Shown: positions 3,559-28,506, numbered from the stretch's first letter. The stretch is DNA of 64,000 bases from a virus (IMGVR_UViG_3300028534_000026:2128-66127), one strand, 5' to 3'. The notes: generated from the letters alone by a model not told the origin. Numbers and translations: made by a program.

Positions 3559-4178
3559 ATTACCACACCCTCCAGCCTGTGGGCATACCAAGGCAGAAAC
3601 ATAGACCACTTCTTCTCGGCCCGCTCTTTCTCATAGTTGGCAAGATTGGCAAGGGCTTCATCAGCGGCCTCTTTACAGTGTTCATAACCAATAAACCCCC
3701 AACGACTCTCAACAACCTCATCGTCCTTATCCAGAATCTCATACCCGTACACTTCCCCCTCCATGTAGGCAGAAAACTCCTTGATCTCTCCCTCAAGCCT
3801 CTTTTCCAGTTCCTCGTCAGTGAGCCCATCAACCTCCTTCTTCGCCACGATAACACCACACTGCCCTGAATCCCAGGAGCAGGTAAAAGGGCTGGTGCTT
3901 ATGACTACACCTGAGTGAATATAGGCATGTACATCCAGAATGACGTAATGCTTATCAAGAATCCCCTTGATAGCGTCATCCAACCAATAGTCTGATATAT
4001 TTTCCGGATCAAAATCAGGGTGGATATCCTGACAGAGTTCGACCATCTTCTCCTGAATATCGTCCACCTGCTCATCCCCAAGAACGTACCGGGTAGAGGT
4101 ATAATAAATTGTTCCCAAATTACCCCACTCTCTTGGGTTCATCGGGTCATCATCTCTGACTATTTTGTACCGTAACAT
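3546..4178 (-). CDS. acidic protein of the HSG..STSPF.C.WDSGQ.G family, often annotated anti-restriction
   Basis: Motifs AYIHSGVVISTSPFTCSWDSGQCG and YMEGEVYGYEI...VESRWGFIG; D/E-rich. Confidence 0.6.
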   Translation of the reverse strand: MLRYKIVRDDDPMNPREWGNLGTIYYTSTRYVLGDEQVDDIQEKMVELCQDIHPDFDPENISDYWLDDAIKGILDKHYVILDVHAYIHSGVVISTSPFTCSWDSGQCGVIVAKKEVDGLTDEELEKRLEGEIKEFSAYMEGEVYGYEILDKDDEVVESRWGFIGYEHCKEAADEALANLANYEKERAEKKWSMFLPWYAHRLEGVVICQL

Positions 4179-17082: not shown

Positions 17083-17390
17083 CCGAACCCCCTTTGATAT
17101 CTTTTTTCCTGGCGGGTAATCGCCTGTTGTTCGTCGTATTCTTCAGGTGTCGGGCTGTATTTTCTCACCCTTCCACCAGCACAGCAATTCTCAAGGAACC
17201 AGTATGCTTTGTCCTGTTCCTTGAATTCAGCAATCGTCATGCCATTGCTATCATCAACATACCATACTGTGTTTTTCAGTATCTTTGGTTGTTTCGGCTG
17301 TTCATCCCTAAAGGGCCATGAACTGATGATTTCGCAATCATCATTGTACTGGCTATTTGTAAATGTTATTGCGAATTCTTTTTCATCCAT
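17079..17390 (-). CDS. early hypothetical protein
   Basis: GAGG RBS before MDEKEF. Confidence 0.7.
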   Translation of the reverse strand: MDEKEFAITFTNSQYNDDCEIISSWPFRDEQPKQPKILKNTVWYVDDSNGMTIAEFKEQDKAYWFLENCCAGGRVRKYSPTPEEYDEQQAITRQEKRYQRGFG

Positions 17391-17412
17391 TGTCTTTACC
17401 TCTACAAACAAA

Positions 17413-21108: not shown

Positions 21109-22593
21109 ATGGGAATACTTAATAAAATTTTTGGTAGGGCATCGCAGGCTCAGACGGAAGAGGTGAAGGTGCCGGGTAAGAAGACTGAGATTACCACTCC
21201 GTCGTACCTTACGACCTCTAAGGGGTCGACGATTACTGATAATACTACTAATATCACTAATTTAGTCCTGTCTGACTCTATAAGGTGGTCTCCTACTATG
21301 TCGGAGACTATCAAGAAGTTGGTGTTGTCTTCACCGGACTTGTCACATGCGGTAGAGGCTAAGATAAAGTCTGCGATATCAAGTAGATATACAGCCTTTG
21401 CGTATGACCAGACAGGGCGGGTTGATGAGCAGGGCACGGAATTGGTCCAGATGTTCCTCACCAGGCTGAATTTTGCTGCTCCTGATTACACTAAATTTTC
21501 CAAGCCGAGGGATCTGAGGTCCCTTACATCAAGTTTTCTTTATGATACCTTTCGGTATGGGGCGGGGATGCTGGAGGTGGTTCTTGGTAAAACAAGGTTG
21601 CCGGCCTATATCAAGGTTGTTCCTGCCAGGTTGTTGGAGTGGGCTGATGATAATCCGTCTACATATCCAATATACAAGGGTCCAAATAATGTAGATATCC
21701 CGCTTAATTACCCAAATATTATATATTCTTCCTCTATTCAGGATGGGGAATCGCCATATGCTGAGTCGCCGCTACAGGCTGCGATCCAGGCGTGTCTGTG
21801 GGATTCAGATTTTGTGAATGACTTGCGCCGGGCGGCTGTGAGGAATTTGTTCCAGCGGATGGTTGGGACAATTGACTCAGAGAAATTTGTCAAGTCGCTT
21901 CCACTGGACGTGCAGACGGATCAGAAGAAATTAAAAGAACACCGGGAAGCGCTTCTCACTGCGTTGGACAGCAGGCTTAAGAATTTGTCTCCATGGGACG
22001 CCCTTGTTGTCTTTGATAATATTGCGTTTGACACGATTTCTGCAGCGAACAGGTCTGAGGATAGGACCATATCTGTGTTGCAGGAATTGATAAACGGGAA
22101 GATTTCTGCAGGGGCGAAGATCCTGCCCTCCATTATAGGTCGGGGGACTTCTTCGGATGCGGCCTCTACGGAATCCCTGTTGTTCCTGAAGAGTATTTCT
22201 GCGGCTCAGTTGGAATTTAATAATGCTATGTCGCGGGCGTTGACGTTTGTGCTCAGGACGTATGGGAACAGGGGTTACGCGAGTTTTGCTCTGGAAGAGG
22301 TCAACCTGCGGCCCTACCTGGAGCTGGCGAGCTTTCGGGCGATTGAGCAGTCGACTATTCTGGAGCTGTTATCTCTCGGGCAGATGTCAGATACCATGGC
22401 CTGTATCAAGTTGACAGGGTCTCTGCCGCCGGAAGGGTATAAACCTTTGTCCGGTACGATGTTCGGGGTGAAGAAGCCGGATGTTTCCGGGAATGATTAT
22501 TCCAATACTTCAGTTTCTCCGGACGGGAAGCCGGATTCGACACAGGCTCAGAAGAATTCAGATCCTGATAATAAAGGAGTTAAGTCAAAATGA
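21109..22593 (+). CDS. portal protein
   Basis: 494 aa between TerL and the protease; call rests on size and synteny. Confidence 0.75.
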   Translation: MGILNKIFGRASQAQTEEVKVPGKKTEITTPSYLTTSKGSTITDNTTNITNLVLSDSIRWSPTMSETIKKLVLSSPDLSHAVEAKIKSAISSRYTAFAYDQTGRVDEQGTELVQMFLTRLNFAAPDYTKFSKPRDLRSLTSSFLYDTFRYGAGMLEVVLGKTRLPAYIKVVPARLLEWADDNPSTYPIYKGPNNVDIPLNYPNIIYSSSIQDGESPYAESPLQAAIQACLWDSDFVNDLRRAAVRNLFQRMVGTIDSEKFVKSLPLDVQTDQKKLKEHREALLTALDSRLKNLSPWDALVVFDNIAFDTISAANRSEDRTISVLQELINGKISAGAKILPSIIGRGTSSDAASTESLLFLKSISAAQLEFNNAMSRALTFVLRTYGNRGYASFALEEVNLRPYLELASFRAIEQSTILELLSLGQMSDTMACIKLTGSLPPEGYKPLSGTMFGVKKPDVSGNDYSNTSVSPDGKPDSTQAQKNSDPDNKGVKSK

Positions 22594-23453
22594 CAATGAA
22601 ACCAACTACTTACGATATACTCATGATACAACGGGGGTATTATGAGAAGTTCCTCCAGGCTGAAGCTTCCGTGGCCGAGGTGTTGATGGCTGGTACGATG
22701 AACCCGTCTGATGCCGATGAGAGTAGGAACCCAGCTCCTGAAGTCTTGTCCATTCAGGACAACGTGGCGGTGGTATCAATTTCTGGGATGCTTACGAACA
22801 GGCACTCTTGGGCAAATAAGTATCTTGGGTTGGTGGCTTATGAAAGGATCAACCAAGCTATTATGTACGCCATGGAGCAGGATGTCAAAGCAGTCGTGTT
22901 TTATTTTGATACTCCAGGCGGGAAGGTGAATGGCGTAGCGGAGACTGCGGATCTGATATCCAATATACCAGTCAAGACTTTTTCTTATGCCGGTGGGAGT
23001 ATGTGTTCAGCAGGGTATTTTCTTGGCTGCCAGGCTGATTATGTTTTTGCTGACATGATGGCAATGGTCGGGTCTATCGGGGTGATCATGGAATTTTATG
23101 ATTACTCAGGGTTTCTGAAAGAGAGGAAGATCAAGCCAGTGAGGTTCCGGTCGGGGAATTTGAAGGGCGCAGGGAGTCCTGCCTTCTCTTTGACAAAAGA
23201 AGAGATCGCCCACATCCAGGGTATTGTAACGTCTATGGCTGACAATTTTTACCAGATTGTTATGGATGCCAGGGGGATTGATATGGCGGTCATGAAGGCC
23301 CGTGATATTCCCTCCGGGAAGGAGTTTATAGGTGAGCAGGCTGTCCACGCGATTCTGATTGATGGGGTAAAACCATTCGGGGAAGTAATGACCCAAGCTA
23401 TTGAAGAGGCGGAAAAACACTTGACAAATACTAGCCAAATGCTGTATGGGTAG
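22590..23453 (+). CDS. S49-family prohead protease
   Basis: FDTPGG, MCSAGYFLG and VGSIGV motifs. Confidence 0.88.
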   Translation: MTMKPTTYDILMIQRGYYEKFLQAEASVAEVLMAGTMNPSDADESRNPAPEVLSIQDNVAVVSISGMLTNRHSWANKYLGLVAYERINQAIMYAMEQDVKAVVFYFDTPGGKVNGVAETADLISNIPVKTFSYAGGSMCSAGYFLGCQADYVFADMMAMVGSIGVIMEFYDYSGFLKERKIKPVRFRSGNLKGAGSPAFSLTKEEIAHIQGIVTSMADNFYQIVMDARGIDMAVMKARDIPSGKEFIGEQAVHAILIDGVKPFGEVMTQAIEEAEKHLTNTSQMLYG

Positions 23454-24550
23454 AACACAGACTAAAAGTAGCTGATTTATAAGCCATATACGAGGTGTCA
23501 TGATTAGAAGTTCTATATTATCAGTAGGTGCTGCCAACCGAAGTAAACTATTACTGTTAGACAGTATCTCGGATGAAATGCTTGCAGTAGTTAATTTATA
23601 TATTGACTCACTGTGGAGTAAAAAGGACTTTTCTTCTAAGTTTGTCAGCGAGAAAGTTGACACCTGGTTATCTGCCCGATTACAGCAGTGTTTGGGAAAA
23701 CAAGCCCTTGAGATAGTCAAATCTCAAAGAAAGAAGAAGAATAGGGTGAAACCAGTGTTGAAGAGAAAATCATTTAATCTGGACAGTAGATTTATAGATT
23801 TTCAGTCAGGCAACCATTTTGATTTGTGGGTAAGAATTTCATCAGTAGGCAGGCGTATTCAGTTGCGACTACCAGCAAAAGCCCATAAACATTATAATAA
23901 ATTCAAAAATTGGAACAGAAGTAAGTCTGTCAGATTAATTAATAGGGGTGGAAGGTGGTTCATTGAGGTTTTCTTTGAGAAACAGGTACCAAAAAGAAAA
24001 AGCAGTGGTAAGGTTGTAGGGATTGACTGCGGCTATAAAGAACTTGTTAGGACTTCTGCTGATCAGTCTTTTGACGACGGCCTTGAGCATATTTACGAAA
24101 AAATATCCAGAAAGAAACAAGGAAGTAAGGCGTTTAAGCGGGCGTTGATCGAAAGGGACAGCTTGATAAACAAGTCACTAAACAAGTTTGACTTGTCAGA
24201 GGTTATGGAGCTGGTAGCAGAGGATTTGAAAAATGTAAAGCGGAAGTCGAAAGGCCGAATAAATAAGAAGTTTAATAACAAATTACAACGATGGAGTTAC
24301 CCAAAGGTTTTGAGGAAGCTCCAGCGACTGGCAGAGGAGGCTGGGACATTATTCACTCTAATACCACCAGCCTACACAAGCCAGAAGTGTTGTAAATGTG
24401 GGACGATTGATAAATCTAACCGACAAGGGAAGATTTATCAATGTGCTTGTGGGAGCGTTATAGATGCAGACTTAAACGCAGCAATTAATATCTCACACAT
24501 GGGAGTTTATAGTCCCCATGCCCTGTGTTAAGCTACTTAGTAACTATGGG
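23451..24550 (+). mobile_element. non-autonomous TnpB element, IS607-like ends, no TnpA
   Basis: TATGGGTA at 23445-23452 and 24545-24552, exactly 1100 bp apart; removal restores GGG TAA and a normal spacer to the scaffold RBS; right-end hairpin at 24494-24527. Confidence 0.7.
23500..24531 (+). CDS. tnpB: RNA-guided endonuclease TnpB (343 aa)
   Basis: RuvC triad VVGIDCG / LVAEDL / DADLNAAINI intact; YTSQKCCKCG...CACG zinc ribbon. Confidence 0.92.
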   Translation: MIRSSILSVGAANRSKLLLLDSISDEMLAVVNLYIDSLWSKKDFSSKFVSEKVDTWLSARLQQCLGKQALEIVKSQRKKKNRVKPVLKRKSFNLDSRFIDFQSGNHFDLWVRISSVGRRIQLRLPAKAHKHYNKFKNWNRSKSVRLINRGGRWFIEVFFEKQVPKRKSSGKVVGIDCGYKELVRTSADQSFDDGLEHIYEKISRKKQGSKAFKRALIERDSLINKSLNKFDLSEVMELVAEDLKNVKRKSKGRINKKFNNKLQRWSYPKVLRKLQRLAEEAGTLFTLIPPAYTSQKCCKCGTIDKSNRQGKIYQCACGSVIDADLNAAINISHMGVYSPHALC

Positions 24551-24570
24551 TAAAGACAATCACAACAGAA
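24400..24570 (+). ncRNA. predicted omegaRNA (5' boundary approximate), guide TAAAGACAATCACAAC...
   Basis: TnpB omegaRNAs are known to overlap the tnpB 3' end and read into the right flank; the hairpin is seen directly; the extent is inferred. Confidence 0.45.
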
Positions 24571-24583
24571 GGAGACCTTCGAT

Positions 24584-25120
24584 ATGAAGAAAGCTGTTAA
24601 CAAGGCTGCCCTTGAGCAGCTGTACAAAACAAAAGTGGCGGAAGAGCCTGAAGCTGAGACCAACCTCGATGCCAATGAAGAAGAGGTAGAGACTCCTGAA
24701 TCCAGTACAGAGGTTGCTGAGACTCCTGAAACTAGCGGAACTCCCGAGATGGAGACAAAAGTAGCAGAGCTTGAGTCCAAAATTACTGACCTTGAGGCCA
24801 AGATTACTGAGTTGGAGGCGGCTGCTGAGAATGTCTCAAAGGAGGCTGAGGCTAAGGACGAGCTTATCACTGAGATGCGAGGTGTTCTTGCAGGCCAACT
24901 GGAACTTCGCAGGGCTGCTCTTGATCTTGCTGAAGTGGATACCAAGGAGATGGATGCTGCCACTGTGCTCAAAGAGTTTAAGGCTGCTGACAAGCTATTC
25001 ATGAAGAGCCTCCCTTCCGGGGAAGTTACTCCTGAAGCTACTACTGCTAAACCTGAAGAAGAAAGGGTCTTCAAGACCATAACCGACAGAGCGGCTGCTG
25101 AGGCCCTCGGATTTGAATAA
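24584..25120 (+). CDS. capsid scaffolding protein
   Basis: Very acidic, coiled-coil heptads; AAGGAG RBS; follows the protease. Confidence 0.75.
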   Translation: MKKAVNKAALEQLYKTKVAEEPEAETNLDANEEEVETPESSTEVAETPETSGTPEMETKVAELESKITDLEAKITELEAAAENVSKEAEAKDELITEMRGVLAGQLELRRAALDLAEVDTKEMDAATVLKEFKAADKLFMKSLPSGEVTPEATTAKPEEERVFKTITDRAAAEALGFE

Positions 25121-26814: not shown

Positions 26815-26844
26815 ACCCCGGCCAGTTTACTGGCCGGGGTTTTT
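26815..26844 (+). terminator. intrinsic terminator after capsid gene
   Basis: ACCCCGGCCAG/CTGGCCGGGGT 11-bp stem plus T run. Confidence 0.85.
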
Positions 26845-28506
26845 CCATACCCACTTTGTTTTGCCACAATCCCATATACGAAGGTAACCATTCCGTAAGG
26901 CGTTATCGTGTTCTGTTTCCTCGGGTGAGAAATCAAATCCAGGCAGTTTTTTCATTCTTGATTTGGTAAGCATGTTTTTAGGGACCACCAGTTCAGATTT
27001 CATGTACTTATAATCCGGTCGTAGGTATTTATCTTTGGTGAACCCAAGATTTCTATACATTTCCCCTGTAAACCACCTGTTATCGGAGTAGCTGGTTATC
27101 GTCTTTGGTTGGTACTTTCTTATAAAAGAAGCAAACAGCTTTCCTGCCCCACCTATTACAGCTGTTTTTGTTGAGAACCTTCTGAGCTCCCACACACCTT
27201 CCTCTTTTCTGAGCCCGCGATGCCCTACAGGTGAACTAAACAGCATACACCCAATGAGGTCATTGTTGTGGAAAATGCCAAAACTCTTGCAGCCGGATAC
27301 CCAACCCTGCAAGTGGTTTTCTTCTAGTAGCTCTTTTGTCCCTATACATTCGATTTCTCTGCATTCGCAGTTTCTGGCATATACCCTGTTTTTGGTTACG
27401 CCCAATATATGCAGGAGGGTTTTCTTTACTACCTCCTGATCTTCATATTCGGCCACATGAATGAGTCTGATGCTGTGGGAAGCACAGAGTTTTTGCTTTT
27501 CTATTAGGTGGTTTTTATTTTTGAATCTCTCAGAGTGCCAGAAGTTGCCGTTGAACTCTATTGCCATGTTCTTGTCTGGGATAAGTATGTCTAGCTCATG
27601 TCTTCCTATTACTCCCCTCACATTCCTTTTGATGTCTATGTGTCTGGATAAGAAGTCAGCTAGCTCTTCTTCTTTTGAGGATTTACCACCATACCTACAT
27701 TTTGGGCACCCTTCTCTGAGTAGGTGGGATTCTGGGGTCTGGCTGAATACGGTGTTGTGTTCAGTACAGATTATATCAACTCGTTTTCTGCAGTCCTCAT
27801 AATTTACCTTAGAGTAGTCATATTTGTCTCCATACTTGGCCTCGCAGTTTTTCACCCATTTATTGTACCCCGTGTCAGTATGGGTCAGCCGTGTAATTAG
27901 TTTAGCACATTCTTGGCACCCACTCCCTTTTAAATGCGTTTCCGGGGTTTGTTTGAATACTCCGTGCGTAGGGCACATTATGTCTACTTCTTCTCTGCTA
28001 GATTTATATCTAACAGCATTGTAGTCATAGGTCTCTCCATGGATGTTTTTGGCCTTCATAATGAAACCAGCAGTAGACATTGTCATTCTTATAGTATGGT
28101 CATCATCTGCGCATTTTCTACAGCCGCTGCCCTTTAAGTGTGTTCCAGCCCGTTGAAAAAAAGGCCCATGTGCAGGGCACACTATTTCTATCTTATTGTT
28201 GCTTCCAGTGTATTTCGAGAGACTGTAGTCATATTTATTGCCGTGTATTTCTTTAGCCTGCTTGATAAACTCCTCTGTGGTCTTTTTTAGTCTCTCGCTA
28301 TTTTCACCATTTTTGCAAGCCATACACCCATTCCCTGCTAGGTGGCCTGCTGCTCGTTGGCTGAACTCACCGTGAGTTGGGCAGATTATTCTGACTAGCC
28401 CGTTACTGCCGGTGTAGTTCGCCAGCGAGTAGTCATATTTGCCGCTGTGCTTTTCTGTAGACCTTTTGATAAACTCCTCCGTGGTCAACTTTCTTCCTCT
28501 AGCCAT
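26827..28506 (-). CDS. Hef-like homing endonuclease: Zn repeats, PD-(D/E)XK-like domain, C-terminal domain
   Basis: Four KYDYS...IxCPxHGxFxQ...HLxGxGCxxC repeats; ELDILIPDKNMAIEFNGNFWHS; EENHLQG...WELRRF...IWDCGKTKWVW; antisense to the operon. Confidence 0.8.
   Translation of the reverse strand: MARGRKLTTEEFIKRSTEKHSGKYDYSLANYTGSNGLVRIICPTHGEFSQRAAGHLAGNGCMACKNGENSERLKKTTEEFIKQAKEIHGNKYDYSLSKYTGSNNKIEIVCPAHGPFFQRAGTHLKGSGCRKCADDDHTIRMTMSTAGFIMKAKNIHGETYDYNAVRYKSSREEVDIMCPTHGVFKQTPETHLKGSGCQECAKLITRLTHTDTGYNKWVKNCEAKYGDKYDYSKVNYEDCRKRVDIICTEHNTVFSQTPESHLLREGCPKCRYGGKSSKEEELADFLSRHIDIKRNVRGVIGRHELDILIPDKNMAIEFNGNFWHSERFKNKNHLIEKQKLCASHSIRLIHVAEYEDQEVVKKTLLHILGVTKNRVYARNCECREIECIGTKELLEENHLQGWVSGCKSFGIFHNNDLIGCMLFSSPVGHRGLRKEEGVWELRRFSTKTAVIGGAGKLFASFIRKYQPKTITSYSDNRWFTGEMYRNLGFTKDKYLRPDYKYMKSELVVPKNMLTKSRMKKLPGFDFSPEETEHDNALRNGYLRIWDCGKTKWVWKNPGQ

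Follow-up and report, generated by a model that had tools for sequence, protein, structure and literature searches.

A probable transposase-less IS607-type TnpB element, silently inserted in a phage capsid operon, and its empty site in sister phages

Organization of the locus

The window, which is the whole 64,000-nucleotide stretch of DNA analysed here, corresponds to bases 2128-66127 of the 69.6-kb IMG/VR phage record IMGVR_UViG_3300028534_000026 and contains a tnpB gene within its morphogenesis operon. The operon comprises, in this order, the genes for a terminase (19321), a portal-like protein (21109), and an S49 prohead protease (22590-23453), the TnpB element, and the genes for a scaffold-like protein (24584), a cement-like protein, and the major capsid protein. 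We conclude with high confidence that the tnpB gene belongs to a transposase-less IS607-type TnpB/omegaRNA element that was silently inserted at a site where sister phages carry no such element.

The tnpB product, 343 amino acids (aa) in length, matched NCBIfam NF040570 (108.3 bits; cut-off, 100; residues 39-332) and the Pfam TNB domain PF07282 (61.8 bits; cut-off, 26.3; 6.8e-17). The catalytic residues D176, E241, and D324 and the zinc finger residues C297, C300, C315, and C317 (CxxC...CxC) were invariant across 23 relatives. An AlphaFold2 (AF2) model of the protein had a predicted local distance difference test (pLDDT) score of 88.5, and its Foldseek matches included AsCas12f (3.5e-17), ISFba1 TnpB (5.9e-16), and ISDra2 TnpB (2.6e-13). 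The GC content of the element (0.37-0.42) was lower than that of its flanks (0.47-0.51). Neither a serine transposase (PF00239) nor a Y1 transposase (PF01797) was matched anywhere in the 69.6-kb record, in agreement with an initial annotation of this DNA, which had described a transposase-less element with an intact RuvC nuclease and a left end of approximately 50 bp (52 nt in our delimitation); the same PF00239 search of the record showed no IS607 serine TnpA that might act in trans, for which that annotation had suggested looking.

The empty allele in sister phages

The element is flanked by two copies of an 8-bp direct repeat, TATGGGTA, located 1100 bp apart. A contig from run X2, whose sample and study are other than those of the source, joins position 23444 to position 24545; 8 letters at the join are ambiguous, as they fit both sides. 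Three further loci (L009, L010, and L011), which were fetched via homologues of the scaffold protein, equal the window minus exactly 1100 bp and carry the repeat once; because their lists of mismatches were identical, they were counted as one independent sample. Over 6.9 kb, L009 and the window were 95.6% identical, with zero mismatches from -89 to +51 at the junction. Occupied and precisely empty alleles are therefore found in otherwise collinear genomes, and the empty-site junction predicted by the initial annotation was recovered letter for letter in both the X2 contig and L009-L011. In L008, a more distant phage whose protease was 74% identical, the element was also absent and the end of the protease gene carried the same TATGGGTA; the empty state is therefore ancestral. 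The Logan assembly of the source run crossed the whole insertion without any difference, and the occupied allele is thus not an assembly chimera.

Viral contigs scanned for exact copies of the empty site and of the right flank contained none, the empty site having been reached through reads and protein neighbours. There were no near DNA matches among INPHARED phages, and no useful relatives of either the protease or the L003 upstream gene were found in viral contigs. Run X3 yielded no contig across the junction and run X4 contained a phage of the L006 type (see below); neither run is informative about expression or occupancy.

Borders of the element and its effect on the neighbouring genes

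The repeat pair alone would be at chance level, since four such pairs of 8-mers occur within 1.2 kb; it is meaningful because the empty site exists. The distance from the repeat to the tnpB start codon is 49-52 bp, and neither tnpA nor a recognizable promoter was found in the left end (23448-23499). The last codons of the protease gene and its stop, TAT GGG TAG, overlap the left junction, and the protease ends of all relatives read ...TGTATGGGTA(A/G). The GGGTAG of the left end re-creates the Gly-stop of the protease, which is 287 aa long and ends MLYG-stop in the occupied and empty alleles alike; the ribosome-binding site (RBS) of the scaffold-like gene next to the insertion is intact, and no plus-strand terminator was predicted inside the element. 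The insertion is silent with respect to both neighbouring genes, and with the Gly-stop restored the capsid operon reads through unharmed. The initial annotation had noted both the repeat at the two junctions, 1100 bp apart, and the silence of the insertion; its repeat is extended here to 8 bp, at 23445 and 24545.

Some other candidate features of the borders were rejected or weakly supported. The only inverted repeat seen was an 8-mer at chance level, and the subterminal pair AAGTAGCT/AGCTACTT was therefore dropped as a feature of the element. The left end may be a 3' remnant of tnpA: it is weakly similar to the tnpA 3' ends of the nearest relatives, a likeness that was significant (2/1000) only when the shared TGTATGG was counted and not (118/400) when it was left out.

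Relatives of the element and repeated loss of the transposase gene

Searches in which the protein or an alignment served as the query identified relatives at 16 viral and 19 metagenomic loci (30-65% identity) and only three in one-per-species prokaryote genomes. A database search gave 1154 clusters at E <= 1e-40; the family is thus large and its context mostly unknown, and the label of a mostly viral clade was dropped for this reason. The TnpB of the window is unique, the closest TnpB elsewhere being 76% identical. In at least 14 relatives, a serine recombinase of 185-190 aa overlaps the start of tnpB; relatives at 54-76% identity have the serine TnpA directly upstream, and this protein was identified as an IS607 transposase by NF033518 (176.5 bits; cut-off, 110). 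The lineage is therefore of the IS607 type by protein similarity, as the initial annotation had proposed, and the copy in the window is a derivative without tnpA.

At least 10 copies of TnpB are solo. In a maximum-likelihood tree, solo and full-length copies were interspersed, and the well-supported branches require at least four losses of tnpA. All 10 solo TnpBs examined (10/10) keep the D/E/D triad and the Cys residues. Internal deletions of tnpA were clear in L054 and L033. In L054 (249-338; L055 is the same), the left end is kept and tnpA is cut to an in-frame remnant of 29 codons, in which the N-terminal MKLNKYAKQNG is fused to the C-terminal KRRTRRK...; L033 (~400-458) has a similar in-frame tnpA stub and also keeps the left end. 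The stubs in L054, L055, and L033 are snapshots of transposase loss.

A conserved RNA structure at the right end

The last ~150 nt of the element folded with a z-score of -2.7 relative to shuffled sequences, and the region contains perfect arms of 12 bp. RNAalifold analysis of 18 elements gave 17 pairs, and compensatory changes were present in 12 of these. The predicted scaffold includes a hairpin at 24406-24442 as well as an outer stem around the DAD codons, a hairpin designated S3, a short terminal hairpin, and the terminal AACUAU. The stem of S3 pairs 24498-24503 with 24515-24520 around an invariant loop, GUUUAUAG; 91.7% of its cells were paired and five of the six pairs were changed on both sides, a result reached by 0/500 shuffles, while slid controls gave 28-57%. 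The short hairpin 3' of S3 is variable in sequence and is followed by the invariant AACTAT. The AUAGU of the S3 loop (24507-24512) is complementary to the terminal ACUAU (24543-24547) in 18 of 21 elements; L041 shows one compensatory change, and the two segments may form a pseudoknot beside the guide that would position it. This covarying structure is consistent with an omegaRNA. No Rfam family matched the RNA of the element or that of 11 related loci, and RAGATH-18 in particular was not matched at E values up to 10 in 23300-24800 or in the same 11 loci.

A weak sigma-70-like match (TTAATA, 17 nt, TATAGT) lies on the plus strand at 24485-24513, near the end of tnpB, where it overlaps the conserved hairpin. 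It could be a chance match or could drive the scaffold-like gene.

Guide register and target-adjacent motif

The right end reads AACTAT in approximately 20 relatives with nothing conserved after it, the next bases being unconstrained in 20 elements, and the related pairs L043/L044, L035/L037, and L024/L027 lose similarity immediately after this motif. The scaffold would thus end at 24547 and the guide would begin GGGTAAAGAC. Combined with the empty site, this boundary places the left border at 23448 and TGTAT in the position of the target-adjacent motif (TAM). The letters of the predicted guide also follow TGTAT in the empty alleles. The predicted downstream target would read GGGTAAAGACAATCACAACA in the AACTAT register and TAAAGACAATCACAAC in the register of the initial annotation.

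The predicted target is preceded by GTAT in the empty allele and by CTAT in the occupied one. Consistent with this difference, (G/T)TAT stands at the left junctions of five placeable solo relatives and CTAT at all right ends, and the diverged duplicate of the target gene in L020 has AGTAT where the right junction has ACTAT. GTAT was found upstream of tnpA in 10 of 13 elements, compared with 4 and 7 in control zones, and its distances were less clustered when the true start codons were used; these counts lend mild support to the TAM. We predict from these comparisons a TAM ending in (G/T)TAT. The best off-target in the window has 3 mismatches. A 12-nt match to guide positions 2-13 lies on the minus strand at 17389-17400, where an early gene starts; the preceding letters are TGTAG-A rather than TGTAT-G, mismatches follow, and the match is unlikely to be a target.

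Other alleles in the same gap

In L006, L007, L051, and L053, which come from at least two studies and share a backbone that is 92% identical, an identical 183-nt spacer replaces tnpB. The spacer contains a RAGATH-18-like motif that scored 27.3 bits against RF03064 (gathering score, 44.9; E = 0.0023), with the conserved GGAG...GAUGAAG core matched. RAGATH-18 is the guide-RNA core of another branch of IS607 TnpBs (PMC11061315), and the spacer may be an orphan IS607 guide RNA located in the same gap; it seems from this resemblance that two different IS607-type elements have struck the gap. From position 6-7 onwards, the predicted guide is mismatched in both the L006-type and the L008 alleles, which would therefore be immune. 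The spacer as a deleted copy of the window element was unsupported (125/300). The left end of the element is weakly similar to the L006-type intergenic DNA (13/2000; local alignment, 49/500) and may be its homologue. The features of the locus are listed in Table 1.

Table 1. Positions of the features at the tnpB locus (window coordinates unless a locus is named)
Feature	Position	Strand	Basis or remark
S49 prohead protease gene	22590..23453	+	Pfam PF01343, 1.3e-26
TGTAT, proposed TAM	23443..23447	+	Predicted from the empty site and the right-end boundary
Left copy of the 8-bp direct repeat TATGGGTA	23445..23452	+	Single copy in empty alleles
Left end, 52 nt	23448..23499	+	Begins GGGTAG; RBS GAGG 5 nt before the tnpB ATG
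tnpB, 343 aa, RuvC and zinc finger residues intact	23500..24531	+	ORF (open reading frame) call, profiles, alignment, AF2 model
Predicted omegaRNA scaffold	24395..24547	+	Overlaps the 3' end of tnpB; 5' limit approximate; ends AACUAU
Hairpin S3	24498..24520	+	Stem 24498-24503 with 24515-24520; invariant loop GUUUAUAG
AACTAT, conserved last six bases of the right end	24542..24547	+	Proposed scaffold end
Right copy of the 8-bp direct repeat TATGGGTA	24545..24552	+	Repeat search
Predicted guide-encoding flank, 16-20 nt, GGGTAAAGACAATCAC...	24548..24567	+	Predicted; ends at the scaffold RBS
Acidic scaffold-like gene directly 3' of the element	24584..25120	+	ORF call and homologues
183-nt protease-scaffold spacer, no nuclease gene	L006:4757-4939 (= window 23454-24583)		RAGATH-18-like motif

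Possible homing between co-infecting phages and alternative explanations

The element is best explained as a non-autonomous derivative of an IS607-type insertion sequence that lost its serine transposase and kept a 52-nt left end, an intact tnpB, and a right end encoding a predicted omegaRNA, inserted after TGTAT, one codon before the protease stop. Read-through of the capsid operon would yield TnpB together with an omegaRNA that consists of a scaffold ending in AACUAU and the guide GGGTAAAGACAATCAC. The complex would recognize (G/T)TAT followed by GGGTAAAGACAATCAC, which, since CTAT precedes the target in the occupied genome, would be present only in element-free sisters. In a mixed infection, the empty genome would be cut near the scaffold RBS and the break repaired from the occupied genome, so that the element would be copied in, or the rival genome would simply be removed. 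Since the element has neither a transposase nor a clear left end, homing would be its sole route of spread. We give active homing between co-infecting phages roughly even chances. The intact nuclease and RNA structure, the repeated retention of solo copies, a perfect natural target, and the bacterial and plasmid precedents appear to favour it. Several observations weigh on the other side. The element is present in one contig only, there is no near-identical copy elsewhere and hence nothing that shows recent spread, the empty alleles come from a sample different from that of the occupied one, and no co-conversion tract is visible around the junction when L009 is compared with the window. The basis of the TAM consists of one empty site, one paralogue, and mildly enriched motif counts. 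Three bases of the 8-bp repeat are explained by the likeness of the TAM to the right end, but five are without explanation: GGGTA opens the left end and also follows the right end, an identity that makes the repeat 8 bp long and restores the Gly-stop of the protease.

If the element is instead an inert passenger, it would have arrived by ordinary IS607 transposition, either at full length with a later loss of tnpA or through a TnpA acting in trans, and would now be stranded and neutral, with TnpB intact merely because too little time has passed. Its single occurrence without near-identical copies, the record devoid of a transposase, the internal tnpA deletions in close relatives, which indicate ongoing decay, and the harmlessness of the insertion to the neighbouring genes all fit such a history. 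Phage genomes, however, quickly shed useless DNA, the 343-aa frame is open although the flanks have diverged by 4.4% from the empty allele, and ten independent solo copies spread over a deep tree retain the catalytic set and the RNA structure; we therefore consider the passenger explanation rather unlikely, while regarding it as the most serious of the alternatives. It is more doubtful still that TnpB-omegaRNA is kept as a weapon, destroying competitors with the empty allele without being copied, or acting on another target. The perfect target in the sister phages and the presence of a second transposase-less TnpB in the same phage are compatible with that role, and homing endonucleases give such an advantage when recombination fails; at 95.6% identity, however, recombination should be efficient, so that exclusion and homing would occur together, and the window offers no other good target, the best off-target having the mismatches given above and the seed match at 17389-17400 the wrong first base (TGTAG).

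The remaining alternative concerns the register rather than the fate of the element. The initial annotation had assumed a canonical IS607 insertion at 5'-TGGG-3', with the scaffold ending in ...AACUAUGGG, the guide TAAAGACAATCACAAC (TAAAGAC...), and TGGG as the TAM. This register is allowed by the 8-bp repeat and matches the TAM and target motif of the IS607 element CboIStron, TGGG; IS607 elements usually end in GG, and the L006-type insert in the same gap, which ends ...TTTGG, fits that rule. The window element departs from it, since the GGG that follows its AACTAT belongs to the target, and 17 of 20 relatives lack GG after AACTAT, where the related pairs diverge. The pairing of the terminal ACUAU with the invariant S3 loop also marks ACUAU as part of the scaffold. 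Moreover, in the TGGG register the target would be preceded by six identical bases in the occupied and the empty allele, so that TGGG would also stand at the right junction of the occupied genome and the phage would cleave its own DNA. The TGGG register is probably wrong, and we regard it as the least credible of these alternatives, with very little chance of being correct.

A left-border footprint in solo copies

TAT joined to four or more bases that match the start of the right flank of the same element was found within 150 nt upstream of tnpB in five of nine solo elements, compared with 5.6% of cross-paired controls (binomial p 1e-4) and 0/10 full-length elements. The carriers were the window (GGGTA), L054, L020, L033, and L038, with footprints of 4-7 bases. 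Possible causes are selection for harmless insertion, a recombinase preference for junction-like targets, or a copy-and-join process initiated by TnpB. In the last case, TnpB would cut approximately 20 nt from the TAM and stay on the TAM-proximal end, the free end would copy the right end and tnpB leftwards from a donor, and end joining would seal the product; the left side would then be truncated and devoid of tnpA, with the first few target bases remaining as a footprint. Such a process would explain why the footprint occurs in 5/9 solo and 0/10 full-length elements; nevertheless, that solo phage TnpB cassettes are made and spread by TnpB itself, rather than being mere products of decay, seems to us improbable.

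In L020, the solo tnpB is flanked on either side by the 3'-terminal ~35 codons of the upstream gene, in two copies that are 79% identical to each other (2371-2484 and 3582-3696; z = 27). The intact copy precedes tnpB and the displaced copy starts immediately after AACTAT. Flank duplication was rejected as a general feature because L020 alone shows it.

Comparison with known TnpB systems

TnpB is the ancestor of Cas12, and the role shown for it is to keep a transposon from being lost after excision; solo TnpBs borne by phages are frequently annotated. In the CboIStron of Clostridium botulinum, an IS607 element, TnpB cuts the donor joint and drives homing, and a one-base difference between the TAM (TGGG) and the right end (TCGG) keeps the element from cutting its own right junction (Zedaveinyte et al., bioRxiv 10.1101/2023.11.20.567912). 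The window element resembles it in its serine-TnpA lineage, in a predicted right-end omegaRNA that takes the flank as its guide, and in the one-base difference between the likely TAM and the terminus. It differs in having neither tnpA nor a group I intron, in a right end of AACTAT rather than ...TCGG, in a likely TAM of (G/T)TAT rather than TGGG, and in its site in a phage capsid operon; whereas the target of CboIStron is the sister chromosome after excision, here it would be another genome. ISFba1 TnpB (Ren et al., Cell Res 2024, PMC11061315; PDB 8IAZ) is likewise of the IS607 type and has a similar fold, but its right-end element RNA (reRNA) lies wholly downstream of the ORF and contains RAGATH-18, and its TAM is AGGAG, whereas the RNA predicted here overlaps the ORF and has no RAGATH-18. 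ISDra2 TnpB of the IS200/IS605 group (Karvelis 2021, PMC8612924; PDB 8H1J, 8EXA) shares the compact size, an omegaRNA overlapping the 3' end of the ORF, an A/T-rich TAM (predicted for the window), and the fold. The ISDra2 family, however, uses a Y1 TnpA and single-strand transposition, whereas the relatives of the window element have a serine TnpA and there is no Y1 gene in the record.

The arrangement of the locus, a nuclease gene between conserved genes that is missing in relatives, is also that of the free-standing homing endonucleases of phages (T4 SegF, SegB, and Mob; PMC13565253), which are expected to spread, as proposed here, by cutting the rival genome in a mixed infection; homing into co-infecting phages is treated as a concept in the same review (PMC13565253). 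Recognition by the window element, in contrast, would depend on a guide RNA and a short TAM, and self would be distinguished from non-self by the presence or absence of the element instead of by base substitutions. The plasmid TnpB gene drive (bioRxiv 10.1101/2025.02.20.638934, PMC11870625) is similar in its non-restorative homing into element-free copies of a multicopy replicon; it is an IS605 element, whereas here a solo IS607-type element in a phage population with a lytic cycle is concerned, and homing is a proposal. No report of TnpB homing between phages was found in the literature searched.

Homing between co-infecting genomes has been put forward as the way in which transposase-less TnpB elements persist and has been demonstrated for plasmids; here it is proposed for a phage. 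New in this locus are a non-GG right end and a likely A/T-rich TAM in an IS607-type lineage, a guide-RNA fold that has not been described, and a natural series of four alleles at one site of a capsid operon. The occupied allele, the perfectly matching empty allele, and the two alleles with mismatched targets make up a natural test set, including one for the rule of self-avoidance by GTAT versus CTAT. An IS607-type branch that departs from the rule of GG ends and G-rich TAMs, with very small nucleases (~340-350 aa) and their guide RNA, may also be of interest for genome editing.

Other features of the phage

The second TnpB of the phage, 378 aa in length, is encoded beyond the window (G000:C1:68181-69317; L002:1255-2391) and scored 199.9 bits against NF040570. 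It is unrelated to the 343-aa protein (29% identity) and is likewise without a transposase in the whole record. On the minus strand of the window, at 26827-28506, an ORF of 559 aa encodes repeated treble-clef/DUF723 zinc finger modules with a weakly Mom-like C-terminus. This ORF is missing from L009 and L006, where ~300 bp with an ORF of 107 aa takes its place, and it constitutes a second presence/absence polymorphism, 2 kb downstream of the TnpB element.

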